From: Gammaproteobacteria bacterium | Lineage (GTDB): Bacteria > Pseudomonadota > Gammaproteobacteria > Eutrophobiales > Eutrophobiaceae | DNA length: 64,000 nt | Assembly (NCBI GenBank): GCA_022826885.1 | Contig: JAJDUB010000059.1 | Location: 7,172 to 71,171, forward strand | Direction: 5' to 3' | In this document: piece by piece, positions 4,017-54,857 of the stretch | Layout: each line of letters starts with the position of its first letter | How positions within the stretch are numbered: the first letter of the stretch is position 1 | The notes under the pieces: model-generated | The model's database searches: none | Told to the model about the DNA's origin: nothing | What the model saw: only the letters and a program-made list of their open reading frames with translations | Program-made: the position numbers and the translations under genes

Positions 4017-4042
4017 CATTTAATCCATGTTATGTACAAGAA

Positions 4043-4645: not shown

Positions 4646-4737
4646 AATGATGTTTAAGGCACTTATTTCATTCAAAGATACTACTTTTTTGCTTGAAGTC
4701 GTGCGAAAAACTGATTGGCTAAACGAGGAGTTTTAGC

Positions 4738-5004
4738 GTGCCAACCATATCGATGTTTTACGGCATAATTATCAGAATGTATTTTGCACCTGGTGAGCAC
4801 CCTCCACCTCACTTTCATGTGTATTATTCTGAACATAAGGCAAGGGTTGATATTCGCACATGTGAAATAATTGATGGCAAGTTGCCAAAGAGGCAAACTA
4901 AGTTAGTTTTAGCGTGGGCAGAGCTTCATCAGGAAGATCTTTTGGCAAATTGGGAACTCGTCATGAACGGTGAAGAACCGTTTAAAATTCAACCGCTACA
5001 ATGA
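4738..5004 (+). CDS. DUF4160 family protein (putative toxin-antitoxin component)
   Basis: MPTISMFYGIIIRMYF...EHPPPHFHV...LAWAELHQEDLLANWE is the DUF4160 signature; GAGGAG RBS upstream of GTG. Confidence 0.85.
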   Translation: MPTISMFYGIIIRMYFAPGEHPPPHFHVYYSEHKARVDIRTCEIIDGKLPKRQTKLVLAWAELHQEDLLANWELVMNGEEPFKIQPLQ

Positions 5005-5014
5005 GGTAAAGTTA

Positions 5015-5275
5015 GTGAACCCGGCTGTAACATCAGTTGAATGTAAAGATGATTATCTTTTGTCAGTAGTTTTTGATAGTGGTGAGAGTGGGTTACTGGA
5101 TATGAAACCTTACTTGAATTTTGGAGTCTTTAAAAAAATTCAAGACCCGTGCAGATTCAAAACTGCTTATGTCTCTTTTGACACAATTGCGTGGGAGTCC
5201 GGCGCTGATCTTGCCCCTGAGTTTGTTTACAAAAACTGCAGCATAGTAAAGCAAGACTCTTCAGAAGGTGACTGA
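5015..5275 (+). CDS. DUF2442 family protein (partner of DUF4160)
   Basis: GTG 5015 after GAGGT; V...DDYLLSVVFDSGESGLLDMKPYL..GVF...TIAWESGADLAPEFVY matches DUF2442; directly downstream of DUF4160. Confidence 0.8.
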   Translation: MNPAVTSVECKDDYLLSVVFDSGESGLLDMKPYLNFGVFKKIQDPCRFKTAYVSFDTIAWESGADLAPEFVYKNCSIVKQDSSEGD

Positions 5276-5393
5276 CGACATCGCCGATTTTGGCTGTAAG
5301 GAGTATTCTTATCCGTAAGCTTGTCCCTTTTTTCAACGCTTCTTTGGAGTTTGATGGCGGCATTGAGGAGGAACCGATGCACCCGGCTGTAAT

Positions 5394-5855
5394 ATGAGAA
5401 TGTCATACTGGAATCACAGAGTAATCAGGAAGCGTCACACCGAAACAGAATCGGTGGCATATCAGGTTCACGAGGTTTATTACCACGAGAACGGCGCCAT
5501 TGAAGGTTGGACAGAAAAACCCGTCGCGCCTATGGGTGAAACGATTGAGGAACTGAGAGAAGATATAAGGTATTTTCTCCATGCGTTCCGTCGTCCAATT
5601 CTGGAAGAAAAAGAAACAGACGAAGGCTCAACTCTTATCCCCGACGATACGGACGATGCAATAAATGACGGCCATTATTTCGAACTCCTGGACCGAACGT
5701 ATGTAGCGTTGGATTACATTTACCAGTTTCTTGGCAGCCACCCGGTAGTAAGAAAAGACAAAACGTTACAAGACACGTACGAAAAAGCCGAAGAGGCCTT
5801 GGCTGAACTCTATCAACAGGCAGGTCGGCTGGAGTTTGACAGAGGTAGCAGCTAA
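5394..5855 (+). CDS. Hypothetical protein
   Basis: 153-aa ORF in the AT-rich islet with N-terminal YWNHRVIR...HEVYY..G...WTEKPV.P.GET.EEL pattern; function unknown. Confidence 0.65.
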   Translation: MRMSYWNHRVIRKRHTETESVAYQVHEVYYHENGAIEGWTEKPVAPMGETIEELREDIRYFLHAFRRPILEEKETDEGSTLIPDDTDDAINDGHYFELLDRTYVALDYIYQFLGSHPVVRKDKTLQDTYEKAEEALAELYQQAGRLEFDRGSS

Positions 5856-5912
5856 GCGGGAAAACTCTGTCGATAATTCCTTAATAACAACATTCATACC
5901 TATCGCAATGTA

Positions 5913-6827
5913 ATGAGCTATCAAACAGTCAAAGACAAGCTGGACAATGGCGAAATCGTTTTGCTGGACGGCGGCACCGGTTCCGAGATTGAGCGGCAGG
6001 GCGTTGAGATGAACGACCTGGCCTGGTGCGGTATCGCCCATGTGGATTACCCGGAGGTTGTGCGCCAGGTGCATGAGAGTTACATCCATGCCGGCGCCGA
6101 TGTAATTATCGCAAATACCTTCGGGACCGCTCCGCACGTGCTCAAGCGCCTGGGGCTGGAGGATCAGTTCGCGCAGGTCAACCAGTCTGCCGTAGCCGTG
6201 GCATTGGCGGCCCGAGACAACTGCGGCAGGGATGTGTGTGTCGCTGCTTCCATGTCCTCCATGCCGGCATTTGATACATTTGCCGTTCCGAAAACCGATG
6301 AGGTGAGGCAGGGTTTTGTCCGCCAGGCTGAGTTGCTGGCGGAAGCCGGCGCCGAACTGATTATCGCCGAGATGATGCGCGACGTGGATATCTCCGATAT
6401 GGTTATCTCTGCGGCCAGGGGAACGGGAATACCGGTATGGACGGGCTTCAGCGCCAGCAGGAACGACGCCGGCACGTTAATCAACTATGAGTCACCCGTG
6501 CGCGATGACGAGACCATGCCGTTCAGACGGATGGCGGAGGAAGTCCTCGGTATGGGCTGCGATGCCGCCGGAGTCATGCATTCCAGCGTCCATGATACCG
6601 GTCCGGCGCTGGCGGAATTGGGCGAGTTGTGGAACGGATCCATGTTCGCGTATGCGGAGAGCGGCCATTTCGTCCCGCCAAGCTGGAAGTTCGAGGATAT
6701 TATTTCCCCACAGGACTACCTGGGCTATGTAAAGCAATGGATCGGCCAGGGCGTGCAGGTGGTCGGCGGCTGTTGCGGCATGGGGCCGGAGCATATCAGG
6801 GCGCTGAACGAGAACCTGGCAGTTTGA
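5913..6827 (+). CDS. Homocysteine S-methyltransferase family protein
   Basis: LLDGGTGSE N-terminus, HESYIHAGADVIIANTF, C-terminal VGGCCGMGPEHI zinc-binding motif. Confidence 0.88.
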   Translation: MSYQTVKDKLDNGEIVLLDGGTGSEIERQGVEMNDLAWCGIAHVDYPEVVRQVHESYIHAGADVIIANTFGTAPHVLKRLGLEDQFAQVNQSAVAVALAARDNCGRDVCVAASMSSMPAFDTFAVPKTDEVRQGFVRQAELLAEAGAELIIAEMMRDVDISDMVISAARGTGIPVWTGFSASRNDAGTLINYESPVRDDETMPFRRMAEEVLGMGCDAAGVMHSSVHDTGPALAELGELWNGSMFAYAESGHFVPPSWKFEDIISPQDYLGYVKQWIGQGVQVVGGCCGMGPEHIRALNENLAV

Positions 6828-39945: not shown

Positions 39946-41049
39946 ATGATTTCTGATATTGATGCGTTGATGGACCGGCGCCAGACCGGTTACAGCCTCC
40001 CCCGGCCATTCTATACCGACGCGGACGTTTACCGGTTGGACACCGGGCATGTTTTCAGCAAACTCTGGATGCTGGTCGGTCATGTTTCCCAGATCCCGGA
40101 ACCAGGCGATTATTTCCTGGCTGAAATTGCCGGAGAATCCATATGCGTCGTACGCCGGGATAAAGAGGATATCGGCGCTTTTTACGACGTGAGTCCCCAC
40201 GCCTGTCATGTGCTGCTATTCGAAGGGTTGATATTCATCTGTCTCGCCGGGGATTCTCCGCCTGATGTCGATTCCACGCTGCAGGAAATAGCGCCTTTCG
40301 TGAAACCACAAAATCTGGTAGGCGCCAGGGTCATTCACGAAACCGTCCTGGCTACCGATGCAAACTGGAAACTGGTCGTCGAGAATTTCTGGGAATGTAA
40401 TCACTGCGAACCTTCGCACCCTGAATTCATGACGGTCCATGGTAGAAACTGGGTGCTGGCGATGGGCGCGGGCCTTGGCGCGTGCGTCTCGGAACAGGCT
40501 GAAATGGACTACCGGGAGGAATTCAAGGCATTTGAAGCGCGCGCTCAATCGCTGGGGCATCCTTTCGGTTCAGCCTCGAAGTTGGGCCTGGCGTCAACGG
40601 AGTTCTGGCAGGTCCTGCGTTCTCCGTTGGCGGAAGGTTGTTACTCGGAGACGCGGGACGGCAGAAAGGTGGGACCGTTGATGGGAGACCTCAATGACTT
40701 TGACGGCGGGATGACCCACATCAGTTTCAATCCGCTGGCTTCACTCTGGTTGTGCAACGATCATGCAGTCACATTCAACTTTCGGCCGATGGGGCCCATG
40801 TCTACGGATGTGCATATGATGTGGCTGGTGAACGGGGATGCGGAACCGGACAGGGATTTCACCGTGGAGGAAGTCGCATGGATGTGGACAACGACCGGGC
40901 TTCAGGACAAGACGATCACTGAAAATAACCAGTCCGGCATTAACTCGAGTCGCTATCGGCCGGGGCCGTACTCACTGATGGAGCGGCAGCTTGAAGACTT
41001 TGTGCAATGGTATTTCGCACGGCTGCGAGAGGCCGGCGCCGGCTCCTGA
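39946..41049 (+). pseudogene. GbcA/Stc2-like Rieske oxygenase alpha subunit lacking its Rieske [2Fe-2S] ligands (in-frame deletion)
   Basis: Catalytic domain intact (NWKLVVENFWECNHCEPSHPE; QDKTITENNQSG) but AFYDV runs directly into SPHACHVLLFEGLIF; no CxH...CxxH pair anywhere. Confidence 0.7.
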
Positions 41050-41087
41050 ACAATTTGAACAGCGATACGCAAGGGGAGGCACTGAAG

Positions 41088-42113
41088 ATGGCCAAGATCA
41101 AGGCGGTGTTATTCGGCACCGGCAACATGGGCAGGTTGATAGCCGGATACCTGGTTGAGAAAGGCGTGGAGATCACCGGCGCCGTCAGTCAAACACATGT
41201 AGGACAGGACCTCGGCGATGTGACCCGGATCGGCCGTCCTGTGGGAGTCACGGTCAGTGGGGACCCGGAGGAAATGCTGGCAGGGACCGAAGCCGATATT
41301 GCCGTGTTGGCGACCTGCAGTTCGATGGCGGAACTGTATCCTGACGCCAGCTTGTGCCTGCAACGGGGAATTAATGTGGTGACGATAACGGAAGGGGCGT
41401 TTTATCCCTGGACCTATGACCCCGACATGGCTGCAGATTTGGACAACCTGGCAAAACAGCATGGCGTGACGCTGACGGCCACCGGGGTGCAGGACATATT
41501 CTGGATAAATTCCATCGCACTCCTGACCGGCGCCTGCCACCGGATAGACATCGTCGAATTCGAAGGCACAGCCGATTTCGGGACTCTCGGGCCTGCCGTA
41601 TTGAACAACCTCCCGTTGGGACTGACACCTGAGCAGTTTCAGGAAATGGCCCCTCCACCGGGCGCAAAGCCGCCGGCATCGATAGTGGGAATGGGGTTCG
41701 AGGCATTGATCAACAAATTGCGCCTGACCATCAACAAGGTCGATGGCGGGATAGAGCTTGTGCTGGCAGGTAACGACGTCGAATGCATCGGCTTGAACAA
41801 GGTAATCAGGGCGGGACAGATAAACGGCCTGCGCGAGATCCTGGCGATCGAGACTGCCGAAGGTCCCGTATTTCGCGCAAGATTTGCCGCGAAAATATTT
41901 GAACCGGATGACCGGGAAAACTATACATGGAATATCAGGGGAGTTCCGGACATCCACCTGCAGCAGAATGATGTGCCCAGCGTGGAAATAACCTGTGCTT
42001 CAATCGTTAACCGCATCCCGGATGTCCTGAACGCGGAACCGGGATTTATAACCGCAGAGAAACTTGACACTCCATTTTACCGAACGTCATCACTGGAGAA
42101 TTATATTGATTAA
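41088..42113 (+). CDS. NAD(P)H-dependent amine dehydrogenase / 2,4-diaminopentanoate dehydrogenase-like protein
   Basis: GTGNMG Rossmann motif, GINVVTITEGAFYPW, TLTATGVQDIFW, C-terminal TCASIVNRIPDVLNAEPG. Confidence 0.75.
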   Translation: MAKIKAVLFGTGNMGRLIAGYLVEKGVEITGAVSQTHVGQDLGDVTRIGRPVGVTVSGDPEEMLAGTEADIAVLATCSSMAELYPDASLCLQRGINVVTITEGAFYPWTYDPDMAADLDNLAKQHGVTLTATGVQDIFWINSIALLTGACHRIDIVEFEGTADFGTLGPAVLNNLPLGLTPEQFQEMAPPPGAKPPASIVGMGFEALINKLRLTINKVDGGIELVLAGNDVECIGLNKVIRAGQINGLREILAIETAEGPVFRARFAAKIFEPDDRENYTWNIRGVPDIHLQQNDVPSVEITCASIVNRIPDVLNAEPGFITAEKLDTPFYRTSSLENYID

Positions 42114-43272: not shown

Positions 43273-43809
43273 TTACAAAGTTAATTCCCGGACAAGATCG
43301 CCTGTCAATGGGAAAAACCTGTCTGCGACATTCTTCAGTTCGTTTGACGGATCGGCCTGGTACTCAAAAAAAGCATTCTCGACTTCCTTGCCGTGTCTTT
43401 GTACCGCTTCGATCGCGGGACGCAGTGCCGGGCGGCGGCTGATAACTACGGCAATATCATAACTGTCGTTCATGCCTTGCTCGAACATGTCCAATGCCAG
43501 CATGACGTCAACCCCCTGGTCCAGGTACATGCCTCCCCGCACCTGCATCTCCGTCGCTCTGGTGCTGAAACCCTGATCGGCCATAAGGCTCAACAATTCA
43601 CGCTGTGCCGTTTCCTTTTTCGGGTAGCACTGCCCCGGGTAAATCGCAAGCCAAGCAGACTTGCCGGTTACCGTGCGCTCGCCTGCGATGTGATCTACCA
43701 GGGCTGAATAATCAATCCTCCAGGGCATGCCCTGTCCCCTGAGTCCGTCCAGCAACCAGCCGGCGTCGATGAAAGCGCTTACCCTGGGCTGAAGTATCTG
43801 TGTCGTCAT
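43273..43809 (-). CDS. NYN (LabA/DUF88, PIN-like) domain protein with degenerate active site
   Basis: FIDAGWL, QGVDVMLALDM, YDIAVVISRRPALRPAIEAVQRHGKEVE, ELKNVADRFFPL. Confidence 0.75.
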   Translation of the reverse strand: MTTQILQPRVSAFIDAGWLLDGLRGQGMPWRIDYSALVDHIAGERTVTGKSAWLAIYPGQCYPKKETAQRELLSLMADQGFSTRATEMQVRGGMYLDQGVDVMLALDMFEQGMNDSYDIAVVISRRPALRPAIEAVQRHGKEVENAFFEYQADPSNELKNVADRFFPLTGDLVRELTL

Positions 43810-43850
43810 GATCTGTCTTGTCCCCGTTACGATATCAGGCCATGCCTATT

Positions 43851-44711
43851 TCAGCAGGACTCGGCAAAACGCAGGATCGCCTGCGAGAGCTCGCTTTCTG
43901 AATCAAACAACCTGAATATATTGGTGGTATGGTCTTCACCCTCTACATCGAGGTAATCGGCCCGTAACCCCTTATTTCTCCATGCCGCTACAAACTCCTC
44001 CGATTGCCGGTGGAACTCGACCGACTCCTCCGCCCCTAACGCGACAAGCAATGGTGGTCCCGAAGCGGGAATGTGAAACAGCGGGCTTTCATTGAATACC
44101 ACATCGCCTGTCAGTTGCAGTTTGGCCTGCAGCCAGCAGTACCGAAACGGTCGCAAATCAAACAATCCGCTGATCGGGATACCTCCCCGGATTACGTCAG
44201 CCGGCATTCCGTAATCCTCCCAGTTGGTAACAGCCAGCATTCCCACCTGGTGGCCACCGGCAGAGTGGCCGGTCACGAAAATACGTCCGCTATCACCATT
44301 GATACTCTCTGCGTTTCGATAAGCCCATGCAACCGCAAGCCTGCTCGCGGCCGTGATGTCCGGAATGCCGACCTTTGGACACAATGCGTAGTCGCTGGAA
44401 ATGCAGGCGAAGCCGAGATCCGCCAGTCCCTTAATGCAGAAGTTGAACAGCTTTCGTGTCCCCAGACGCCACCATCCGCCATGAATGAAGATAATTATCG
44501 GGGAGTCCTTTTTCCTTGCAGGGAATACGTCAATCCGCTCTTCGTCGCGCGCCCCGACGGGAATATCCACCTGGTGTTCCAGCGCTTCAAGCGTTTGGGA
44601 GCTTCTGTGTATAAACGTATCGAAATAGGGAATGATGTCCCACAGGTGATTCTCGATATCGAGTTGCGGATCAATCTGCGCTTGATCCATGAAGTTGTCA
44701 TAGGGGTTCAC
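43851..44711 (-). CDS. Alpha/beta hydrolase, arylformamidase (kynurenine formamidase)-like
   Basis: FIHGGWW oxyanion motif, GHSAGG nucleophile, DHTT His region. Confidence 0.82.
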   Translation of the reverse strand: MNPYDNFMDQAQIDPQLDIENHLWDIIPYFDTFIHRSSQTLEALEHQVDIPVGARDEERIDVFPARKKDSPIIIFIHGGWWRLGTRKLFNFCIKGLADLGFACISSDYALCPKVGIPDITAASRLAVAWAYRNAESINGDSGRIFVTGHSAGGHQVGMLAVTNWEDYGMPADVIRGGIPISGLFDLRPFRYCWLQAKLQLTGDVVFNESPLFHIPASGPPLLVALGAEESVEFHRQSEEFVAAWRNKGLRADYLDVEGEDHTTNIFRLFDSESELSQAILRFAESC

Positions 44712-44730
44712 TATCTTATCCTGTTATTCA

Positions 44731-45933
44731 CTATTCGAATATTTCCGGGGCGGATGATTGCAGGCTTTCAATATACCACTTGTGGAAGTGCCAGAGCGTT
44801 GCTTCGCTATGTGAGGTCCTCCCCTGGACTGCAAAACCGGACCGTTTTCCTCTGTACATCTGCGTAATGCCCCAGAAATCCTCATCTATTACCAACTTGG
44901 CGCTCTGTTTGTAGGCTTCAAATTTTTCCGTGAAATCCGGTGCTTCTGCCGCTTCTTTGCTGACCCCAATTCCATAGCGTCCCGTTGTCCTGTTATGGGT
45001 CTGCGGGTTTATCTGCGTGATAAACAAAAGATCCGGATTGAAGTACCAGCTGAAATTGGGAAATACGATACCCCCCACCGCAGCATTCATATCGGACTCA
45101 TCGAGGTTGCCGGGCAGGGCAAAACCTCCTGTCAGGGAATAATCGTCGGGGTTCAGGATGTCCGAGTTGTCACCTGAGGGAAGACGAAACAGGCAATATG
45201 CAGGCATATTGGTGTTTTCAATTACTGTCTTGCCGGCCGGAACAGAATCGCCCAGTGATATTTCATGGACGGAATCCGTGTGGTAGTTTTCCGCAAATAT
45301 ATCTACTACACATTTCCAGTTCGCCTCAAGATCAAATTCCCCCATTTCGAAATAAACCATGTCATCCGTCTCATGACGCAGGAACTTCGGTTCCAGGTCA
45401 GCGAGTCGGGGGGCCAGCTCCGGTACGGGCCCGCGTTCCATGTTCACGAAGATAAAGCCTCGCCAGACTTCCAGGTGAAACTCATGAAGGCGCCAGTCCC
45501 CGGCTGAAAAATCTCTTGCATTTTCCATGAGCGGGGCGCCCCGAAGCGTGCCATCAAGATTGTATATCCAGTTATGGTAGCGACACCTGAGCAGATTGCA
45601 GTTGCCGCGATCATGGGCAACAGGAAAATTCCGGTGGACACACACATTGGATAACGCATGCAGTTTATCGGCCCTGTCCCGTATTACCAGTACCGGCTCC
45701 TCACAAAAATCAACGGTGAAGTAATCGCCGGGTTTGCCGACCTCGCTGATATGACCGACGGGAATCCAGGACGATTTCAGCAAATGTTCCTTTTCCAGTT
45801 CAAAAACAGCCGGATCGCTGTAGAAGCGCGGGGGGATGGTCGTCGCGGAGTTATATTCGAGCAGGCAACCTTCCACTTCCTCTGCCCGAAACCGATTCGA
45901 TACCTGCCTGGTGCTGACTGGGGTGGTAGACAT
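44731..45933 (-). CDS. Rieske oxygenase alpha subunit, choline monooxygenase/CntA/GbcA-like group
   Basis: NVCVHR...CRYHNW Rieske ligands, ANWKCVVDIFAENYHTDSVH, IDED. Confidence 0.88.
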   Translation of the reverse strand: MSTTPVSTRQVSNRFRAEEVEGCLLEYNSATTIPPRFYSDPAVFELEKEHLLKSSWIPVGHISEVGKPGDYFTVDFCEEPVLVIRDRADKLHALSNVCVHRNFPVAHDRGNCNLLRCRYHNWIYNLDGTLRGAPLMENARDFSAGDWRLHEFHLEVWRGFIFVNMERGPVPELAPRLADLEPKFLRHETDDMVYFEMGEFDLEANWKCVVDIFAENYHTDSVHEISLGDSVPAGKTVIENTNMPAYCLFRLPSGDNSDILNPDDYSLTGGFALPGNLDESDMNAAVGGIVFPNFSWYFNPDLLFITQINPQTHNRTTGRYGIGVSKEAAEAPDFTEKFEAYKQSAKLVIDEDFWGITQMYRGKRSGFAVQGRTSHSEATLWHFHKWYIESLQSSAPEIFE

Positions 45934-45985
45934 TGAAAACCTCTTTATATGGTCATATTACAGGGCGCCTCTGAAGTGTATCATT

Positions 45986-46513
45986 TCACCTGAATACCTC
46001 CATATACTCGATGATAAGTTCCCGTTGTTCCGCGTTGCTCAACCCGGCAAACGCCATGCGGTTGCCCGGCACCAGTTCGGTAGGTTTTTCCAGAAATTCG
46101 TTCATGTTCTCTGCAGTCCATATTTTGCCGTAATCCTGCATCGCCCTGGAATAGGCAAAACCTTCAATAGAACCCGCCGCCCTGCCAAATACCTCTGCAA
46201 GGGGAGGACCGACAACAGACGGTTGGCCCGGTTCCACGGAGTGGCAGACGCCGCAACGAAGCCTGAACAATTTTTCGCCTTCACTGTTGATTGCGCCCCT
46301 GGTTACTTTTGTGACGGCTGCATGCCTGTCCTCTTCGCCGCGCATGGAACTAGGCGTATCGCCGTTACAGCCGGATATGCAACAGGCTGCCAGGACCAGC
46401 ACGCTACATATTACGTTTTTTTTCTTTACCGGTTTTTCAATGATGTAAGAAACTGGTTTCAATATCTGTCCGGGTCTGTTCGTGAGTTTGTTGTTACACC
46501 GGTAGCGCGGCAC
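45986..46513 (-). CDS. Class I cytochrome c (c2-like), probably lipoprotein-anchored
   Basis: CGVCH heme motif, VGPPL..VFGR.AG...F.YS, PGNRMAFAG axial Met, N-terminal VLAACCISGC lipobox. True start uncertain and probably downstream of 46513. Confidence 0.88.
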   Translation of the reverse strand: MPRYRCNNKLTNRPGQILKPVSYIIEKPVKKKNVICSVLVLAACCISGCNGDTPSSMRGEEDRHAAVTKVTRGAINSEGEKLFRLRCGVCHSVEPGQPSVVGPPLAEVFGRAAGSIEGFAYSRAMQDYGKIWTAENMNEFLEKPTELVPGNRMAFAGLSNAEQRELIIEYMEVFR

Positions 46514-47660
46514 CCTTTTTCAGTGAACGGTCAATTGTAAGGAACAAATACCAGGAGAATGAATTGGCAATCAATACGATCCAGCCCATCGAAGCGGCGC
46601 CAAAGTTCTCGATAATATATCCGCCAAGATACGGACCGACCGCGCCGGTCAACAGGAAAGCTCCTGCAGTGATGGCTGCATCACGCCCCGATGGATCCTG
46701 GTCTGCTGCATAGCCAAGGAAATAGGGCACAAGGAAGTACATGCCCACTACGTTGAATGCCGCTCCCAGGCGAAATGCAAGCGGGTGGTGCCAATGGGAC
46801 ATCGTATTGATCGCGACAATCAGGATAAGGACGCCCAGGGTGAGCGGAAGCAGGCGTCCAAACCTGGCGCCGACCAGCGTTGCCGACAAAGCGCCGAATA
46901 CTGAAACCAGCGCCGCCATTCCAACCGCGTTGTGAATTTCTCCTTCACCCAGACCCGCCATGTCTCCCAGCAGGTAATAGAAAGACCACATGGCGCCGGC
47001 CCCGAGAGACACTATAAATACAGCAATAACCAGCGTTACGAGTTTCAGGGAGAAAATACCATGAGCGGGGAGCGCAGCGGGGGTTGAGCGGACTCGTCCC
47101 TGGTCAGCAGTGCCTGATAACAGGGGTATGAGCAGTGACAAAACGGCTATGCCGGCAAAAATCGTCGGAAAAACAATATATTCCAGGTTGAAATACCCGG
47201 CCGTTAGCGGCAGGGAAAAAACGGCCGCCGAACAAAACAGGATGGCAGCGATGTTTATTATGCCGTAAGCCCTGTCGGGTTCCCTGAAGTTTGCCAGTGA
47301 AGCGCTGGCGGCAGCAAGCATTGCCCCTTCGCCAAAACCGGTAAGCGGGCGTGAAATCAACAGTAAATCGTAATCCTGGATTGTCATCGACCAGGCTGCT
47401 CCGGAAAGTGTGACAACGGCGCCGATAGTTGCAATCCGGAGTAATGACAGTTTGTCGAGCAGTTTACCGAACAGGGCAGCGCTCAAAGCGATTGTGGTCA
47501 TCTCCACCGATGCGACAAGGCCTCCTGCGGCTTCTCCTACGTCATACCGAACCATTACCTCATGTATGAGCGAAGGTTGCAGCCACCAAGCGATATTGGC
47601 AATACAATAGGCTGCTGCGCTACCGACGAGGACTCTGCCCTGAAGTATGACTGGCGCCAT
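46494..47660 (-). CDS. MFS transporter
   Basis: About 12 TM helices, SRPLTGFGEG, VGARFGRLLP; start set at ATG 47660 because the longer ORF-track N-terminus overlaps the opposite gene. Confidence 0.82.
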   Translation of the reverse strand: MAPVILQGRVLVGSAAAYCIANIAWWLQPSLIHEVMVRYDVGEAAGGLVASVEMTTIALSAALFGKLLDKLSLLRIATIGAVVTLSGAAWSMTIQDYDLLLISRPLTGFGEGAMLAAASASLANFREPDRAYGIINIAAILFCSAAVFSLPLTAGYFNLEYIVFPTIFAGIAVLSLLIPLLSGTADQGRVRSTPAALPAHGIFSLKLVTLVIAVFIVSLGAGAMWSFYYLLGDMAGLGEGEIHNAVGMAALVSVFGALSATLVGARFGRLLPLTLGVLILIVAINTMSHWHHPLAFRLGAAFNVVGMYFLVPYFLGYAADQDPSGRDAAITAGAFLLTGAVGPYLGGYIIENFGAASMGWIVLIANSFSWYLFLTIDRSLKKGAALPV

Positions 47661-47871
47661 AAACTGCCTCTTGTCTCCGGTTAACGGCAAAATGACATCA
47701 TAGCCTATCCCACTGTTACATTCCTGTCTGTCACACTCGAATGTTACACGATCATTTGACTGGACAGAGGGCTCCAGGCTATGTGCTATGATGCTGAAGA
47801 TTGCGAAAGTACCACCATCTGCCGGCGCCGCGACCCAGCGTCCGGGCGCCGGATATTCAGGAGGGCGAATC

Positions 47872-49329
47872 ATGGCTAAATCAGAAACAGAGTCCGGAAC
47901 ACATAGTGGCCGGGAAGGGGTAAGCCGCAGAAGCGTGTTAGGTGGTATGGCGGCCATAGGAGGTGCCGTTGCCACGGGGTCCGCGCTGCAGGGGTGCACA
48001 GACGGCGGGGATGCGGAAGCACCGGATGTCATTGTGATCGGTGCAGGATTTGCCGGTTGTGTGAGCGCTCGGGACCTGGCTCACCGGGGTTACAAGGTCA
48101 CATTGCTGGAGGCGCAGGGGCGGCTTGGCGGTCGGGCCTTTACCTCGGAATTCGCCGGAAAGGTTTACGAGGCCGGCGCGCTGATGCTGTCCTGGAAGGA
48201 ACCGTTCATGTGGACAGAGGTGATGCGCTACGGACTCGAAATAGAACCCATAGTCGGTGTCCTCGCTCCGGAAGTGTGTTACTGGATCACTGACGGCAAG
48301 GCGATGAGCGCGCCGGCCGAGGAATTCTACGAGATATTCGTACCGCCAATATTTAAGTTCTTCGAGGATGTCGGGACGGTATTTCCGTATCCTTATGCTC
48401 CTTTGACAAACAGGGAAGCCGTGGAGAAACTCGACAGGCTTTCTGTCATGGACCGGGTCAAGACGTTGCCTACCCAGCAGGAGCGTGATTTCGCAGACAA
48501 CTGGGCATCAGCTCCATTGGGCCGTGCCGGGACCGATGTCGGGCTTGCCTCATCGATGGCGCTGACCAGCGCTTTCGGCGGTGTCCAGGCATCATTGGAA
48601 GGGGCCAGTTATCGCTTGAAGAAGGGAACGAGTAACCTGGTAGAGAAGATCGTTGAAGATGGAGGATTTGAGTACCGTCTGCAGTCTCCCGTTTCCTCCA
48701 TTGATCAATCCGGTACGGGAGTCACAGTTACCATTGAAAGCGGCGAGACTTTCACCGCCTCTGCCGTCGTATTGGCGACACCGGTCAATACCTATGAAAA
48801 TATCGATTTTACGCCACCACTGAGCCCGGAAAAACTGACCGTGTCAAAGGGGAAGATGGCAGGCGGGAAAGGCGCACATATCAACGCGAGATTGAAAGGT
48901 AAAATGCCGCCTCTACTGGCTGTGGCTCCCAGTCACATGCCGCTGCACCTGCTGCTGACGACAGACATCCTGGAAGACAGCGTGATAGTCGATGGCTACG
49001 GGCCGGATGCGAGCCTGTTTGACGGGGGAGACCCGGAGGCGGTTCAGGCGGTCATTCGCCAGTGGATACCGGATGTTGAGGTCATGGAAACCGTTTCATA
49101 CAGGTGGGATCTGGATCCTTTTTCACAAGGCACCTGGTGTGGTTTTGGCCCGGGTGTTCTGAGCAAATATTATGAAGCCCTTCGTGAACCGGAAGGCAAC
49201 GTATATTTTGCAAGCGGTGACAGCGCAACAGCTTTCAGAGGTTTTATGGAGGGAGCGATAGAGTCGGGCGTACGGGTTGCCCGGGATGTCCACAATGCGC
49301 TGAACTCCCGCAAGCAGGACCTCGGATAA
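47872..49329 (+). CDS. Flavin amine oxidoreductase (MAO family; NicA2/Pnao/6-HLNO-like) with Tat signal and lipobox
   Basis: SRRSVLGG twin-arginine motif then ALQGC; DVIVIGAGFAG, EAQGRLGGR, WDLDPFSQGTW, GFMEGAIESGVRVA; GGAGG RBS. Confidence 0.88.
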   Translation: MAKSETESGTHSGREGVSRRSVLGGMAAIGGAVATGSALQGCTDGGDAEAPDVIVIGAGFAGCVSARDLAHRGYKVTLLEAQGRLGGRAFTSEFAGKVYEAGALMLSWKEPFMWTEVMRYGLEIEPIVGVLAPEVCYWITDGKAMSAPAEEFYEIFVPPIFKFFEDVGTVFPYPYAPLTNREAVEKLDRLSVMDRVKTLPTQQERDFADNWASAPLGRAGTDVGLASSMALTSAFGGVQASLEGASYRLKKGTSNLVEKIVEDGGFEYRLQSPVSSIDQSGTGVTVTIESGETFTASAVVLATPVNTYENIDFTPPLSPEKLTVSKGKMAGGKGAHINARLKGKMPPLLAVAPSHMPLHLLLTTDILEDSVIVDGYGPDASLFDGGDPEAVQAVIRQWIPDVEVMETVSYRWDLDPFSQGTWCGFGPGVLSKYYEALREPEGNVYFASGDSATAFRGFMEGAIESGVRVARDVHNALNSRKQDLG

Positions 49330-49361: not shown

Positions 49362-50579
49362 ATGAGTCAAATTGATCCGGGTTCGCTGCATTTAATCCCG
49401 GAAACAGGGCCGTCAAAAAACGGGGATCAACAACAGGATGTTTCTAGCGGCAAGAATTTCCGTTTTTTCGACAACAGGCAAAAATACCTGCTCTTTGTAA
49501 ACACCTGCAGCGAGAAGGAGATCATTGCGAAACGGGTGGGCATGGAACTGGCGAATATCCGGCCGACTCCTCCCGCGCTACGCATCTTTGATGCTGGAAT
49601 GGGGGACGGTTCGGTTCTCACCCGGGTCATGCGCGAGACACACCGCCGTTTCCCGACCATTCCGCTCTACATAGCATCGAAGGAAATCAGCCTCGAGGAC
49701 GTCAGGCTGTCCCTGTCAAAGATGTCCGACCGTTTTTTTGAGCATCCCTCAACGGTCCTGGTGCTCACCAATATGTATTATTCAGAGGCGCCATGGATGT
49801 CCCCGAAGAAGGTTGAAGCCGCCCAATCCATGGTATGGAAGGAGGTCGCGCTTGCAGGGACGTCCGCACACGAGTTCGACGAGCAACTGGATGATCTGGA
49901 CGGTTTTCTCGCCCATAACTGGCAGGCTTCGCACAGCCCGGTAACGGGTAACCCTGTCTATGAGCGCCCTGTGGTGCTGGTGATATACAGGGAAGACTAC
50001 CGGTTTCTCCTGGACGATGTCATTCCCCGGCAAGGTAAGGTCAGGGCCGAATATGACCTGGTGATTGCATCACAACCCTATCGGTTAAGAGTTTCAGATG
50101 AATTCAAGGCCGGTAAAGTATTGAGCCCCCTGGTCCAGGCACTGGGGCGGGGCGGCCGGCTGCTTGGCATTCATTCCTGCGGCAATGATCCGGGCCTGGA
50201 AATCATCAGGGAAGTGTGGCCCGACGAAGATCCCTACAAGAGCAACAGGCATCAATTACTGCGTGCGTTGAAACTCGAGTTGGGTAAAGAAGCGAAGAAA
50301 TACAATTTCAATGCATATTCGGACGCACGCTCAATTTTCAGGTATGACATGCATACATTGCCTACGGAGATATCGGCCAGTATCGGGACTTCCACCTTGT
50401 TTGCGGCCTGGAACTCGGCCGTGTATGTCGCCCAGATAGAAGACGAACGGTTGACTGAGGCAATCACAGACAACAGGTATCTTCTTGCGACCGACAAGAT
50501 ATTAAAGAAACACGGCGGCCTCTGGTTTTATGACGAATCTTTTGCGGTGTCGCGTAAAAAAGAACTCAGCAAGCTCTGA
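49362..50579 (+). CDS. Hypothetical protein with class I SAM-methyltransferase-like motif
   Basis: RIFDAGMGDG glycine-rich motif I, KEISLED, YDLVIASQPY; co-oriented with mgsABC-gmaS, 30-nt gap. Confidence 0.6.
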   Translation: MSQIDPGSLHLIPETGPSKNGDQQQDVSSGKNFRFFDNRQKYLLFVNTCSEKEIIAKRVGMELANIRPTPPALRIFDAGMGDGSVLTRVMRETHRRFPTIPLYIASKEISLEDVRLSLSKMSDRFFEHPSTVLVLTNMYYSEAPWMSPKKVEAAQSMVWKEVALAGTSAHEFDEQLDDLDGFLAHNWQASHSPVTGNPVYERPVVLVIYREDYRFLLDDVIPRQGKVRAEYDLVIASQPYRLRVSDEFKAGKVLSPLVQALGRGGRLLGIHSCGNDPGLEIIREVWPDEDPYKSNRHQLLRALKLELGKEAKKYNFNAYSDARSIFRYDMHTLPTEISASIGTSTLFAAWNSAVYVAQIEDERLTEAITDNRYLLATDKILKKHGGLWFYDESFAVSRKKELSKL

Positions 50580-50609: not shown

Positions 50610-51506
50610 ATGTGCGGAATAGTCGGATTATTCAGTAAATCACCGGTCATCGAAGAACGTCTGGGCGAGTTGCTGGCGCGCATGCTCATCGAGATGACGG
50701 AACGGGGTCCGGACAGCACCGGTGTCGCCGTTTATCGTGATCGTGCGCCCGGAGCAATGACCAAGATAACCTTGCTCAGCAGGGAGGGTGAGTTCGACTG
50801 GCAGGCGATGAATGATGAGATTTCCCGGGTTTTCCCGGGCTCCGGCAGCTTGAGGCCCACGGAAAACCATGCCGTTGCGACCATTGACGCACCGGCGAGC
50901 CGGTTTCGGGAATGGGTTGCCCGGGAACACCCGGATCTGTATATCAACAGCACCGGCGCCCGTATGGAGATCTACAAGGAAAAAGGCCTGCCGTCTGATG
51001 TAGTAGACCGCTTCGGGGTCTCCGGCATGCAGGGCACCCACGCCCTGGGGCATACGCGCATGGCGACGGAGAGCAGGGTTACCACTGAACATTCACATCC
51101 TTTTTCCACGGGCGAGGATTTATGCCTGGTCCATAACGGTTCTCTCTCCAACCATAATCGACTACGTGAGTTTCTGAAAAAGAAAGGCATAGATTTCCAT
51201 ACGGATAACGATAGTGAAGTGGCGGCGGGCTACCTGACCTGGCAATTACGGGAGGGCATGTCATTGGATGAAGCCCTGCAAGCGGCATTGTTGGACCTGG
51301 ACGGTTTTTATACGTTTGCCATAGGCACCAGGGACGGGTTTGCCGTACTGCGCGACCCTATTGCCTGCAAACCCGCGGTGATGGCGGAAACCGGCGACTG
51401 GGTGGCGATGGCGTCCGAATACCGGGCCATAGCCGTATTGCCGGGCGCCGACCAGGCCGAATGCTGGGAACCGGAACCGGCGACGGTCTACAGTTGGAGC
51501 CACTGA
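50610..51506 (+). CDS. mgsA: N-methylglutamate synthase subunit A (class II glutamine amidotransferase)
   Basis: MCGIVG N-terminal Cys, RGPDSTG, HTRMATES, VHNGSLSN, NDSEVAA; followed by GXGXG, FMN and GlnT genes. Confidence 0.85.
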   Translation: MCGIVGLFSKSPVIEERLGELLARMLIEMTERGPDSTGVAVYRDRAPGAMTKITLLSREGEFDWQAMNDEISRVFPGSGSLRPTENHAVATIDAPASRFREWVAREHPDLYINSTGARMEIYKEKGLPSDVVDRFGVSGMQGTHALGHTRMATESRVTTEHSHPFSTGEDLCLVHNGSLSNHNRLREFLKKKGIDFHTDNDSEVAAGYLTWQLREGMSLDEALQAALLDLDGFYTFAIGTRDGFAVLRDPIACKPAVMAETGDWVAMASEYRAIAVLPGADQAECWEPEPATVYSWSH

Positions 51507-51511
51507 AACAG

Positions 51512-52198
51512 ATGCGCGTGTTTAACCTGGACGAGGTCAGTTTAAGGGAACTGAACCAGGCATTACACGATTGTAACGGCAGTGATGAGGCTTCCGCCTG
51601 GACGGTGACGAACACAAAGGGAAAACATGCCGTCGCCGCGGGTATTGACGCTCCACTTGAAGTCACAGTTAACGGCCACGTAGGATATTATTGCGCCGGC
51701 ATGAACAAACAGGGGCAGGTCACGATCCGGGGTAATACAGGTCCCGGGGTCGCGGAGAACATGATGTCGGGACTGGTGCGGGTGACGGGCAATGCTTCAC
51801 AGTATGCCGGCGCCAGCGCCCACGGCGGACTGCTGGTTATCGAGGGCGATGCCGGTTCCCGCTGCGGCATCTCCATGAAGGGCGTGGATATTGTCGTCAG
51901 GGGTTCCATCGGGCACATGGGCGCATTCATGGCGCAGAAAGGACGCCTGGTGATCTGTGGTGATGCCGGAACGGCCCTGGGCGATTCGCTGTATGAGGCG
52001 CGTATCTACGTAAAGGGAAAAGTTGCCGGCCTTGGTGCGGACTGTGTGGAGAAACCGATGGCGGAAGAGCACGAACGGGAGCTTGAACAGTTGCTGGAAC
52101 AAGCCGGCATCAACGGCGTGGATGCAGCCGGTTTCCGGCGTTACGGTTCCGCCCGCAAGCTGTATCATTTCAACGTGGATAACGTGGATGCGTATTGA
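51512..52198 (+). CDS. mgsB: N-methylglutamate synthase subunit B (GXGXG/GlxC)
   Basis: Repeated GxxG beta-helix motifs (GHVGYYCAGMN, GNTGPGVAENMMSG, GSIGHMGAFMAQKG). Confidence 0.87.
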   Translation: MRVFNLDEVSLRELNQALHDCNGSDEASAWTVTNTKGKHAVAAGIDAPLEVTVNGHVGYYCAGMNKQGQVTIRGNTGPGVAENMMSGLVRVTGNASQYAGASAHGGLLVIEGDAGSRCGISMKGVDIVVRGSIGHMGAFMAQKGRLVICGDAGTALGDSLYEARIYVKGKVAGLGADCVEKPMAEEHERELEQLLEQAGINGVDAAGFRRYGSARKLYHFNVDNVDAY

Positions 52199-53532
52199 TG
52201 CCTGAAAAAGATATCACGGAATGGTTGCGCGAATCAGCCACGTTCCCGCGTTCGGTCATTGCCGATATCCAGCGCGCCGCGCGCACCGGCATATACGATA
52301 TTCGCGGTTTCGGCGCAAAACGCGCACTGCCGACGTTCGACGACCTGGTGTTTCTCGGCGCCAGCATGACGCGTTATCCCCTGGAAGGCTACCGTGAACG
52401 TTGCGACACCAACGTGACTCTGGGCACGCGTTATGCGAAGAAGCCGCTGGAGTTAAAAATACCCGTCACGATTGCCGGCATGAGTTTCGGCGCATTGTCG
52501 GCGCCGGCAAAGGAAGCATTGGGCCGTGGCGCAACCGAAGTGGGCACCAGCACTACTACCGGAGATGGCGGCATGACCCAGGAAGAGCGGGAGCATTCCG
52601 AACTGCTGGTTTACCAGTTGCTGCCATCCCGCTATGGGATGAACCCGGATGACCTGCGCCGGGCAGATGCCATTGAAGTGGTGGTGGGCCAGGGCGCTAA
52701 ACCGGGGGGAGGCGGCATGCTGCTGGGCCAGAAGATCAGCGCCCGGGTTGCGGAGATGCGCGACCTGCCGGAAGGGATCGACCAGCGCAGCGCCAGCCGC
52801 CATCCCGACTGGACCGGGCCTGACGATCTGGCGATCAAGATCCGGGAACTGCGGGAGATTACCGATTGGGAAAAACCCGTCTACATCAAGATAGGGGCTT
52901 CCCGGACTTATTTCGATACCATGCTGGCGGTCAAGGCCGGGGCGGACGTCATCGTCGTTGACGGAATGCAGGGCGGCACCGCAGCAACCCAGGAGGTCTT
53001 TATCGAACACGTCGGCATCCCCACCCTGCCGGCGGTAAGACTGGCCGTGGAAGCCCTGAAAGAAATGGACATGCACCGCAAAGTCCAGTTGATCGTATCC
53101 GGTGGGATACGCAGCGGCGCCGACGTGGCCAAGGCGCTGGCGCTGGGCGCCGATGCGGTTTCCATCGGCGTGGCAGCCCTGATTGCCCTGGGCGACAACA
53201 GCCCGGAATTTGAAGAGGAATACCGCAGGCTGGGCACGTCGGCCGGCTTTTATGATGACTACCAGGATGGTCGCGACCCGACAGGAATTTCCACCCAGAG
53301 CGATGAACTCGCGGCCCGGTTTGACCCGGTCAAGGGAGGCAGGCGTCTCGCCAATTATCTCCGGGTATTGACGCTGGAGACCCAGACCCTGGCGCGCGCC
53401 TGCGGCAAGAACCACGTGCACAACATGGAACCGGAGGACCTGGCGGCGTTGACTATTGAGGCGGCCGCCATGGCCAGGGTGCCGCTTGCCGGCACTGACT
53501 GGGTTCCTGGTGAAGACAGACCAAAAAAGTAA
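52198..53532 (+). CDS. mgsC: N-methylglutamate synthase subunit C (FMN-binding glutamate synthase domain)
   Basis: AGMSFGALS, TTGDGGM, GQGAKPGGGG, SRHPDWTGPDDL, DGMQGGT, SGGIRSGAD; TGATG coupling to mgsB. Confidence 0.88.
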   Translation: MPEKDITEWLRESATFPRSVIADIQRAARTGIYDIRGFGAKRALPTFDDLVFLGASMTRYPLEGYRERCDTNVTLGTRYAKKPLELKIPVTIAGMSFGALSAPAKEALGRGATEVGTSTTTGDGGMTQEEREHSELLVYQLLPSRYGMNPDDLRRADAIEVVVGQGAKPGGGGMLLGQKISARVAEMRDLPEGIDQRSASRHPDWTGPDDLAIKIRELREITDWEKPVYIKIGASRTYFDTMLAVKAGADVIVVDGMQGGTAATQEVFIEHVGIPTLPAVRLAVEALKEMDMHRKVQLIVSGGIRSGADVAKALALGADAVSIGVAALIALGDNSPEFEEEYRRLGTSAGFYDDYQDGRDPTGISTQSDELAARFDPVKGGRRLANYLRVLTLETQTLARACGKNHVHNMEPEDLAALTIEAAAMARVPLAGTDWVPGEDRPKK

Positions 53533-53549
53533 ATGAGGAGAAAACCGTC

Positions 53550-54857
53550 ATGACAACCGATCTGGCGCAAGTTGCAAAAGAGAGAGGCATCAAATATTTC
53601 CTGATCAGTTTCGTCGACCTGTTCGGCACGTTGAGATCGAAACTGGTCCCGGCGCGGGCAATAGCGGATATGCAGGCGGAAGGCGCCGGGTTCGCCGGGT
53701 TCGCCGCGTGGCTGGATATGACCCCTGCTGACCCCGACATGTTCGGCATACCGGACCCGGACAGCCTGATCCAGTTACCCTGGAACAGGGAGGTCGGCTG
53801 GCTGGCCTCCGACCTGTGGATGAACGGCAAGGAAGTGGAAGCCTCGCCGCGCATCGTCCTGAAACGGCAACTGGCGCAGGCGGAGCAGGCGGGTTACCGG
53901 ATGAAAACGGGCGTTGAATGTGAATACTTCCTCATCAACCAGGAAGGCACGGCCATCTCCGACCCGGCCGATATACAGAGCAAGCCCTGTTATGATCAAC
54001 AGGCATTGATGCGCCGCTATCCCGTCATCAAGGCAATATGCGACTGTATGCTGGAACTGGGGTGGGGGCCGTACCAGAACGACCACGAGGACGCAAACGG
54101 CCAGTTCGAAATGAACTGGGATTATGCCGATGCCCTGACAACGGCCGACCGGCATGTCTTTTTCAAGTACATGGTCAAGACCATTGCGGAGCAGCACGGC
54201 TACCGGGCCACGTTCATGCCGAAACCCTTTGCCGAGTTGACCGGCAACGGCTGCCATACCCATGTTTCCTTGTGGGATGCAACAGGCCGGACAAACCTGT
54301 TCCTGGATGACGGCGATGAAATGGGCCTGACCGCGCTCGCATATCATTTTCTTGGCGGCATCATGCATAATGCCACTGCGCTTTGCGCTCTGTTCAACCC
54401 TACCGTAAACAGCTACAAGCGGATCGATGCGCCGCGTACCCTGTCAGGCGCATCCTGGTCGCCGAGTTCGGTCACCTACACCGGCAATAATCGCACACAC
54501 ATGATCCGAATCCCGGATGCAGGCCGGTTCGAACTGCGCCTCATGGATGGCTCCACCAATCCGTACCTGTCCCAGGCCGGCATCCTCAGCGCCGGACTGG
54601 ATGGTATGAAGAACGAACGTGACCCGGGCAAACCCCTGCATATCGACATGTACGCGGAAGGGCACAAGGTGAAATCCGCACGCAAATTACCGGCAACACT
54701 GCTGGATGCGTTGCGCCTGCTGGAAAAGAGCAGGATATTACGCGCCGGACTGGGCGATGAGTTTGTGGATTCCTACATCAAGCTGAAAATGCAGGAATGG
54801 GGGGAGTACACGTCGCACCTCAGTGACTGGGAACGCAGGAATACCCTGGATTGCTGA
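53550..54857 (+). CDS. gmaS: Gamma-glutamylmethylamide synthetase (type III glutamate-ammonia ligase, GlnT)
   Basis: GFAGFAAWLDMTPADPD, DHEDANGQFEMN, FMPKPF..LTGNGCH, NNRTHMIR, FELRL; adjacent to mgsABC. Confidence 0.88.
   Translation: MTTDLAQVAKERGIKYFLISFVDLFGTLRSKLVPARAIADMQAEGAGFAGFAAWLDMTPADPDMFGIPDPDSLIQLPWNREVGWLASDLWMNGKEVEASPRIVLKRQLAQAEQAGYRMKTGVECEYFLINQEGTAISDPADIQSKPCYDQQALMRRYPVIKAICDCMLELGWGPYQNDHEDANGQFEMNWDYADALTTADRHVFFKYMVKTIAEQHGYRATFMPKPFAELTGNGCHTHVSLWDATGRTNLFLDDGDEMGLTALAYHFLGGIMHNATALCALFNPTVNSYKRIDAPRTLSGASWSPSSVTYTGNNRTHMIRIPDAGRFELRLMDGSTNPYLSQAGILSAGLDGMKNERDPGKPLHIDMYAEGHKVKSARKLPATLLDALRLLEKSRILRAGLGDEFVDSYIKLKMQEWGEYTSHLSDWERRNTLDC

Follow-up and report, generated by a model that had tools for sequence, protein, structure and literature searches.

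The window analyzed here is a 64,000-nucleotide stretch of a gammaproteobacterial contig (JAJDUB010000059.1), and the system of interest occupies its positions 45,986 to 49,329, where the gene for a flavin amine oxidoreductase (FAO) lies divergent from an operon encoding a major facilitator superfamily (MFS) transporter and a cytochrome c (CytC) (Table 1). The initial annotation of this locus had read a twin-arginine translocation (Tat) motif followed by a lipobox-like ALQGC in a flavoenzyme of the monoamine oxidase (MAO) family, a VLAACCISGC lipobox in a divergent c2-type cytochrome and an MFS gene between the two, and had proposed that they form a respiratory chain-coupled amine dehydrogenase. 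The Tat motif and ALQGC were both recovered in the 485-residue flavoenzyme, as were the cytochrome lipobox and the intervening MFS gene.

Table 1. Features of the amine oxidoreductase locus and its surroundings (positions in the window).
Feature	Positions	Strand	Basis and remarks
Flavin amine oxidoreductase, 485 aa; Pnao/NicA2 clade, His336 subfamily	47872..49329	+	Pfam Amino_oxidase (PF01593), E 5.5e-48, full length
Twin-arginine motif S18-R19-R20-S-V-L23	47923..47940	+	Read directly; R19 and R20 invariant in the subfamily alignment
Candidate lipobox L39-Q40-G41-C42	47986..47997	+	Pattern in 17/20 subfamily members
His336 codon, site of the flavin-N5 lysine (NicA2 K340 / Pnao K345)	48877..48879	+	HMMER and MAFFT alignments
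Monoheme class I (mitochondrial/c2-type) cytochrome c precursor; putative electron acceptor	45986..46513	-	Pfam Cytochrom_C
Cytochrome c lipobox I46-S47-G48-C49	46367..46378	-	After h-region VLVLAAC; precursor ends in VLVLAACCISG before C49
Heme motif C87-G-V-C90-H91	46241..46255	-	Aligns with yeast iso-1 cytochrome c
MFS transporter, 388 aa; opens the divergent operon	46494..47660	-	Pfam MFS_1, E 1.4e-16
Divergent control region, 211 bp	47661..47871	.	Alignment of seven intergenic regions
Inverted repeat GTTACA-N8-TGTCAC	47715-47734		Conserved; third GTTACA half-site at 47743-47748
Rieske alpha-only oxygenase	44731-45933	-	Pfam/NCBIfam; downstream of cytochrome c
BD-FAE/Abhydrolase_3 esterase	43851-44711	-	Pfam/NCBIfam; PDB matches include kynurenine formamidase, E 1.7e-11
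NYN-domain protein	43273-43809	-	Pfam/NCBIfam
DAP_DH_C-like dehydrogenase	41007-42113		Travels with the flavoenzyme
X405, 405-aa open reading frame directly after the flavoenzyme	49362-50579		No Pfam or PDB sequence match

The starts of two of these genes differ from those in the list of open reading frames. The flavoenzyme start, listed at 47788, was placed at the ATG at 47872 because this codon is preceded by a ribosome-binding site (AGGAGG, 47859-47864), because the 5' ends of metatranscriptome contigs from three runs lie at 47817, 47835 and 47837, and because all flavoenzyme homologues start at the equivalent position. The ATG at 47788 falls within a conserved extended -10 box, TGCTATGAT (TGnTATGAT, 47784-47792). 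Similarly, the MFS gene starts at the ATG at 47660 and not, as listed, at 48032. The cytochrome c gene may start at a GTG at 46513 that overlaps the MFS stop codon and is replaced by ATG in homologue P0271, or at a TTG at 46462, the equivalent of which is the called start in L002; the mature protein is unaffected by the choice.

The best solved relatives of the flavoenzyme, according to sequence matches in the PDB, are Pnao (7u6l, E 9e-89) and NicA2 (5ttj, E 1e-74). Its AlphaFold model (pLDDT 83) superposes on Pnao with a Foldseek TM of 0.95 at 34-35% identity and on NicA2 with a TM of 0.92 at 33% identity, and the Corynebacterium ammoniagenes monoamine oxidase is also among its structural neighbors. 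The FAD-binding GxGxxG motif is present as GAGFAG (residues 57-62), and the model is disordered up to residue 47 and ordered from approximately residue 50, with the first Rossmann strand beginning at V53. The degree of identity to Pnao and the absence of nic neighbors set the protein apart from Pnao orthologs, which are recognized by high identity and a nicA2-cycN-pnao context.

A by-eye alignment in the initial annotation had suggested that the lysine next to FAD N5 is replaced by histidine in this protein, while the W/F aromatic cage is kept. HMMER alignments to NicA2 and Pnao, together with MAFFT alignments, bear out both suggestions, and the conserved lysine that a proper alignment might have revealed did not appear. 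His336, within GAHINARL, aligns with NicA2 Lys340 and Pnao Lys345, and Trp422 (NicA2 W427, Pnao W434) and Phe458 (NicA2 N462, Pnao F470) reproduce the Trp/Phe cage of Pnao; the NicA2 and Pnao numbering of the N5 lysine and the cage was checked in the literature (PMC9396064). We surveyed the N5 site in an alignment of 264 sequences, comprising 20 members of the subfamily to which the flavoenzyme belongs and 244 other relatives. Histidine occupies the site in all 20 subfamily members and in none of the 244 other relatives, with lysine present in 219 of the 264 sequences and Q, M, N, S, E or other residues in the remainder. The hallmark of the O2-using oxidases, a conserved lysine linked to flavin N5 by a water-mediated hydrogen bond (NicA2 K340), is replaced in the flavoenzyme by His336, which would take the place of the residue that promotes O2 reduction in the true oxidases of the family and which probably helps suppress O2 reactivity. 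Since NicA2 and Pnao retain the lysine, the substitution cannot by itself identify a dehydrogenase.

The His336 subfamily is compact. A search of 5.8 billion proteins yielded approximately 20 flavoenzyme clusters above 60% identity, followed by a gap down to 37%, and among 1.84 billion representatives at 50% identity the subfamily forms a single full-length cluster whose next relative is 42% identical. In a phylogenetic tree the subfamily is monophyletic, with 100/100 support and a long stem. The flavoenzyme occurs in six species-representative genomes, all of uncultured Gammaproteobacteria, and the subfamily is known from metagenomes only; the sequencing runs that contain the window are mostly sponge metagenomes, and no homologue above 37% identity was found in a plasmid database.

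The N-terminal region of the flavoenzyme presents the elements of a Tat signal, with a mildly hydrophobic h-region after the S-R-R-S-V-L motif. This is followed by the candidate lipobox, of which Cys42 lies only about 10 residues ahead of the first Rossmann strand. The combination of a Tat motif and a lipobox-compatible (PROSITE-type) pattern was found in 17 of the 20 subfamily members, versus 3 of 81 other Tat-bearing relatives. In the subfamily, the cysteine is retained directly after Q-[GA] although both the length of the h-region and the residues that follow the cysteine vary; the h-region is three residues shorter in the members that are 61-65% identical (ALTQGC, ALAQGC). Based on these patterns, the flavoenzyme is probably a lipoprotein. 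Outside the subfamily, two unrelated Tat-bearing FAO relatives, P0163 (LAAAC) and P0263 (LAASC), present good lipoboxes, and lipid-anchored FAOs may therefore have multiple origins.

For the cytochrome, the sequence evidence for lipidation is strong, its signal conforming to the strict [LVI][ASTVI][GAS]C consensus. Its cysteine, C49, is shared by all 12 aligned homologues, some of them only 31% identical and from different cluster types. Among full-length homologues, all those with 53% identity or more have the lipobox, the few apparent exceptions being gene calls from an internal methionine. The absence of lipidation signals, named in advance as an outcome that would undermine the proposal, was thus observed for neither protein. 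The best PDB matches of the cytochrome are mitochondrial (yeast iso-1) cytochrome c and cytochrome c2 (E 4e-22), and its single CxxCH motif and distal methionine are those of class I (mitochondrial/c2 type) cytochromes, with C87, C90, H91 and the axial Met153 invariant among homologues. A linker of about 27 residues separates C49 from the heme domain; in the structural model, residues 1-53 have a pLDDT below 50, a helix is tentatively placed at residues 57-74 and the fold is confident from residue 78. The signal peptide of the window cytochrome carries about 24 extra residues in its n-region (46382-46462) relative to the near-identical strains L011 and L012, and this stretch resembles the n-region of the L013-L015 proteins; signal peptides of close strains therefore vary in length between 23 and 48 residues. 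Lipobox-bearing c2-like proteins are numerous in the homologue listing (e.g. P0332, P0340, P0367 and P0390).

The initial annotation had made its proposal dependent on co-occurrence of the two genes in other genomes, and the pairing does recur, in two cluster layouts. A lipobox cytochrome c shares the cluster with the flavoenzyme in every adequately covered locus of the lipobox-bearing members (the window, L011-L015/L001-3, L004, L007/8 and L019), and the contig of P0013 has a 158-residue cytochrome c called at the same position. In the gamma-type arrangement (the window, L011, L012, L013, L014, L015 [= L001-3], the P0013 contig and L019), the flavoenzyme gene is divergent from an MFS - cytochrome c - (BphC) - Rieske oxygenase series, followed by the esterase and NYN genes wherever the flank was recovered; in the window the cytochrome gene lies 1.36 kb from the flavoenzyme gene, with the MFS gene as the only one between them. 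In the alpha-type arrangement of the 61-65% identical branch (L004-L008), which we would guess to be alphaproteobacterial from its sphingomonad-like cytochromes, the lipobox cytochrome c is encoded on the same strand as an MFS transporter, an aldehyde dehydrogenase, a TonB-dependent receptor and the flavoenzyme. The MFS gene adjoins the cytochrome c gene in both cluster types, at 40-98% identity. The relationship also holds in reverse: the cytochrome homologues of at least 53% identity with a known context (P0295, at 53%, and the cytochromes of the above loci) all lie in a flavoenzyme cluster, and the next homologue examined, P0298 (38%), sits outside such a cluster. L016 (10001-11449) encodes a 68%-identical subfamily member that keeps the Tat motif and His336 and is devoid of the lipobox cysteine; it is the only Cys-less member with full flanks, and no cytochrome c was found within 10 kb of it. 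Upstream of this gene, L016 (3514-7811) encodes malate thiokinase-like, malyl-CoA lyase-like and class V aminotransferase proteins, a serine cycle-like set. No cytochrome c was found either on the 10.5-kb contig of L009, the other Cys-less member with context.

What the data show directly are features of the sequences, their homology and conservation, the fold and the co-occurrence of the genes; from these we infer electron transfer from the flavoenzyme to the cytochrome, lipidation of the enzyme, an effect of His336 and the class of substrate. The reading that we favor, and consider fairly likely, is that the flavoenzyme and the cytochrome constitute a cytochrome c-coupled periplasmic amine dehydrogenase, with the enzyme probably lipid-anchored as well, that delivers electrons to the respiratory chain rather than to O2. 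The original proposal of such a coupling is supported by the closest structures, Pnao and NicA2, and by the presence of both genetic marks used by Akram et al. (Biochemistry 64:2834, 2025; PMC12224317) to recognize dehydrogenases of this kind, a Tat signal and a nearby gene for a CytC with a signal peptide, which these authors validated by stopped-flow measurements on 25 enzymes. NicA2 and Pnao are themselves proven CycN-dependent dehydrogenases, in which FADH2 is oxidized by the cytochrome through two one-electron transfers (PMC9396064).

By analogy with these enzymes and with other Tat-FAO/CytC pairs, the 485-residue flavoprotein would fold with its FAD in the cytoplasm, be exported by the Tat system and, once in the periplasm, oxidize an amine at its C-N bond, with hydrolysis of the resulting imine yielding an aldehyde and ammonia or methylamine. 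The two electrons would leave the flavoenzyme in two one-electron steps to the monoheme cytochrome c, and from there would reach the respiratory chain and not O2. The cytochrome, a predicted Sec-exported lipoprotein, would be held by a diacylglyceryl-Cys anchor, its linker allowing the heme domain to roam near the membrane surface. With both partners held by lipid, donor and acceptor would meet on this surface instead of in the bulk periplasm. The MFS transporter would import the oxidation product, or the substrate.

Several observations weigh against this reading, and they are presented here with the alternatives on which they bear. The cytochrome gene is divergent from that of the flavoenzyme and so lies outside the operon of the enzyme, and in four metatranscriptomes the cytochrome c and MFS genes are left uncovered by contigs, even when the likeness required is lowered to 80%, where flavoenzyme transcripts are seen; depths are low and a missing contig does not prove an absent transcript, which makes this a mild point against co-expression of the two genes with the flavoenzyme. 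In addition, NicA2 and Pnao are poor oxidases with their lysine intact, so that dehydrogenase behavior does not need the histidine, and lysine is missing from the N5 site in about 17% of close relatives. The gene orientation and the missing cytochrome transcripts could be accommodated by a genuine periplasmic amine oxidase that produces H2O2, next to which the cytochrome c would be a mere neighbor, with a general role in respiration or some other function; fast Tat-exported FAO oxidases do exist (PMC12224317). We consider this explanation very unlikely. The Tat-exported oxidases of Akram et al. lack a nearby CytC gene, the presence of which is the better predictor of dehydrogenase behavior (PMC12224317); in contrast, the pairing described here is reciprocal and is kept across two cluster architectures. 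Furthermore, the lysine that promotes the reaction with O2 is missing, and no further exported redox enzyme was recognized among the cluster products read. Among the gamma-type products with N-termini read, only the flavoenzyme and the cytochrome carry export signals, which makes the flavoenzyme the sole exported redox enzyme seen in these clusters. The possibility that the cytochrome serves another enzyme of the cluster was accordingly rejected for the products read, the lipocalin_5 and SnoaL-like proteins having no signal peptide, as was the exported DUF4440-like protein of the alpha-type cluster, which has no redox motif.

A second set of observations concerns the anchoring of the flavoenzyme. 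Its lipobox has Gln at position -2, which is atypical and falls outside the strict [ASTVI] consensus while remaining inside the PROSITE-type pattern, and it is preceded by an A-x-A-like G-S-A38, a possible signal peptidase I site that would yield a soluble enzyme. Moreover, three of the 20 subfamily members (P0014, P0015 and P0016) manage without the cysteine, and the FAO dehydrogenases characterized to date have all been handled as soluble proteins (PMC12224317). It is possible, though not probable, that only the cytochrome is tethered and that the flavoenzyme, cut after G-S-A38, acts in the periplasm as a soluble dehydrogenase, as NicA2 and Pnao do, with Q-G-C having another role or none. 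The position of the cysteine, fixed in spite of the variation around it, argues otherwise, as do the alpha-type members, in which the G-S-A site is absent from ALTQGC and ALAQGC, and the enrichment of the pattern in the subfamily. In the tree, the three Cys-less members lie scattered and have longer terminal branches than the others, which suggests independent losses, and in L016 the loss of the cysteine coincides with that of the cytochrome neighborhood.

The remaining observations bear on the membrane to which the proteins would be anchored. The residue after the lipid-bearing cysteine is Thr in the flavoenzyme and Asn in the cytochrome, and in neither is it Asp, the inner-membrane retention signal of E. 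coli; both proteins could therefore reach the outer membrane, leaving the route to the respiratory chain unclear. Throughout the subfamily this residue is Thr, Ala, Ser or Glu, and never Asp, whereas Asp is found at +2 in two cytochrome homologues. A TonB-dependent receptor gene directly precedes the flavoenzyme gene in L004, L006-L009 and L017 and follows it at 0.9 kb in L014, and this abutting in many relatives keeps an outer-membrane location in play. The flavoenzyme might in such a case catch the amine at import, with electrons reaching the inner membrane via the long-tethered cytochrome or another carrier, but this arrangement seems quite unlikely to us. The +2 rule of Lol sorting is not universal outside enterobacteria, no receptor gene is adjacent in the cluster of the window, and tethers of 10 and 27 residues on opposite membranes would hardly span the periplasm.

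To place the cytochrome c-coupled dehydrogenase proposed here among known systems, we compared it with its closest precedents. The pair resembles the Pnao/NicA2-CycN system of the Pseudomonas putida S16 nicotine pathway in fold and clade, in the Tat signal and in having a signal peptide-bearing class I cytochrome c encoded nearby. It departs from this system in the lipobox of the flavoenzyme, in the histidine at the site of K340/K345, in the lack of nic genes, in the divergent orientation of the cytochrome gene with an MFS gene in between, and in the cytochrome itself, a predicted lipoprotein with a linker where CycN has been described only with a Sec signal sequence. The Tat-FAO and CytC dehydrogenases of Akram et al. 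share both genetic marks with the window pair and include precedents for a membrane-bound partner, the diheme cytochrome c4 of their clade 1, and for an N5 lysine lost in nature from an enzyme that reacts very poorly with O2, the Lys-to-Glu variant of Pseudomonas sp. GL-RE-19, which showed the lowest O2 rate measured (PMC12224317). In contrast to these, the partner encoded in the window is a monoheme c2-type cytochrome with a predicted lipid anchor, and the replacing residue is His, not Glu.

The cytochrome can likewise be compared with other tethered class I cytochromes c, with which it would share the anchoring to a membrane and a heme domain kept mobile by a flexible linker, lipobox c2-like proteins with Ala/Pro linkers being present in Alphaproteobacteria. 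Cytochrome cy of Rhodobacter and the lipoprotein c-type cytochromes of Bacillus serve as general carriers in respiration or photosynthesis; the cytochrome clade described here, on the other hand, was found only within the amine-catabolic cluster in the contexts read. Tat-dependent lipoproteins are also present in Streptomyces. In haloarchaea, they combine a twin-arginine signal with a subsequent lipobox cysteine (PMC2945643). The flavoenzyme differs from both groups in its proteobacterial host, in the flavoenzyme nature of the cargo and in the Gln at position -2 of its lipobox.

These comparisons qualify the suggestion of the initial annotation that a system with both partners lipid-anchored is an architecture not known to be described. 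The dehydrogenase principle was published by the Stull laboratory between 2021 and 2025 and extended to more than 100 FAO-CytC pairs, some with a membrane-bound cytochrome c4, which leaves less that is new than was first implied. The anchoring of the enzyme and the Lys-to-His substitution are not described in the literature searched: searches on lipid-anchored FAOs, lipoprotein cytochrome c partners and sponge-symbiont amine oxidases returned nothing specific, and the words lipoprotein, lipid and histidine are absent from the text and supplement of Akram et al. (PMC12224317). Cytochrome c coupling is thus a known principle, lipid-anchored c2-like cytochromes are common and Tat lipoproteins are known from other groups; new are the compact His336 subfamily, the flavoenzyme lipobox that tracks the presence of the cytochrome and the proposed place of this enzyme at the head of an uncharacterized aromatic-amine island in sponge-associated bacteria.

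The genes at 43273..45933 are interpreted from their domains as the conserved cytoplasmic part of this catabolic island, in which the flavoenzyme most likely performs the first step. Recurrent neighbors of the subfamily include a TonB-dependent receptor, a GerE-type regulator, a Rieske oxygenase or a luciferase-like monooxygenase with flavin reductase, a BphC-type extradiol dioxygenase, a meta-cleavage hydrolase, an aldehyde dehydrogenase, the BD-FAE esterase, the NYN protein, the DAP_DH_C-like dehydrogenase, and lipocalin_5 and SnoaL-like proteins, and alpha-type clusters add a hydratase/aldolase/acetaldehyde dehydrogenase trio. The esterase and NYN genes lie near the flavoenzyme gene in all loci with enough flank, L016 excepted. 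The island and the family of the enzyme (Pnao, NicA2 and the C. ammoniagenes monoamine oxidase) suggest that the substrate is an aromatic amine. Its aromatic skeleton would be degraded by the cytoplasmic enzymes of the island, namely a Rieske oxygenase or flavin monooxygenase, an aldehyde dehydrogenase, a BphC-type extradiol dioxygenase and a meta-cleavage hydrolase, with the lower meta pathway completing the degradation in relatives. The DAP_DH_C-like, NYN and esterase genes were seen to accompany the flavoenzyme across very different layouts, with the esterase 54-58% identical in distant clusters.

The island appears to have been trimmed in the lineage of the window. The GerE regulator, the BphC-type extradiol dioxygenase and the TonB-dependent receptor of relatives are found, for instance, in L014 (4841-5656, 7030-8049 and 12316-14523, respectively). 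In the window, L011 and L012, in contrast, the Rieske oxygenase gene directly follows that of cytochrome c (45933-45986 in the window), and BphC, regulator and receptor are absent from the locus. Since L011 and the complete chromosome of L012 have the same layout, it is not an assembly error.

Downstream of the flavoenzyme, the genes at 50610-54857 encode glutamine amidotransferase (GATase) class II, GXGXG, FMN glutamate-synthase domain and glutamine synthetase-like proteins, identified from these domains as an N-methylglutamate synthase and gamma-glutamylmethylamide synthetase gene set (mgsABC/gmaS-like). They are transcribed in sponge metatranscriptomes, and their adjacency to the flavoenzyme is lineage-specific: the block directly follows it only in the window, L011 and L012, lies 4.4 kb off in L014, past the TonB receptor and metK genes, and is absent after the flavoenzyme in L013 (where aroB is next) and in L015/L001-3. 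A single conserved pathway comprising the flavoenzyme, X405, mgsABC and gmaS was consequently rejected. No mgd genes were found in the window, and a methylamine route may matter in its lineage, in which RNA contigs span the junction of the flavoenzyme and X405 genes. X405 was also dismissed as a partner of the flavoenzyme, its family having more than 8000 hits, at approximately 70% identity across Beta-, Alpha- and Gammaproteobacteria and annotated only as hypothetical; in Burkholderiaceae its members lie beside neither FAO nor mgs genes. The protein presents a DAGMGDG loop that resembles methyltransferase motif I. Elsewhere in the window, G+C content drops to 0.43 at 4001-6000, compared with 0.51-0.60 in the rest.

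The inverted repeat of the divergent control region, its third GTTACA and the extended -10 box are common to six of the seven related loci, the exception being L012, which is deleted over the -10 part. A GerE/LuxR-type regulator is encoded in the clusters of relatives and not in that of the window. A generic promoter and terminator scan revealed nothing above background. The flavoenzyme gene is covered by contigs of sponge and marine metatranscriptomes, and RNA contigs also cover genes downstream of it and the Rieske, esterase and NYN genes.

Taken as a joint scenario, which we regard as unlikely to hold in all its parts, these results might mean that both anchors are ancestral and co-evolving, that the enzyme and its dedicated cytochrome form a membrane-surface electron-transfer module, possibly under a substrate-admitting TonB-dependent receptor, and that His336 is a natural switch abolishing O2 reactivity. 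Sponge symbionts would thereby respire host- or sponge-derived aromatic amines, perhaps N-methylated, with methylamine passing to the downstream mgsABC/gmaS-like genes in this lineage.

The system extends the cytochrome c-dependent flavoprotein amine dehydrogenases to a putative membrane-anchored form, and it provides a natural Lys-to-His variant at a residue repeatedly tied to O2 activation, in a field where the determinant of oxidase versus dehydrogenase behavior is an open question (PMC12224317). Furthermore, the flavoenzyme, the gene for which is transcribed in situ, most likely marks the entry step of a conserved aromatic-amine island in uncultured sponge-associated and other bacteria.

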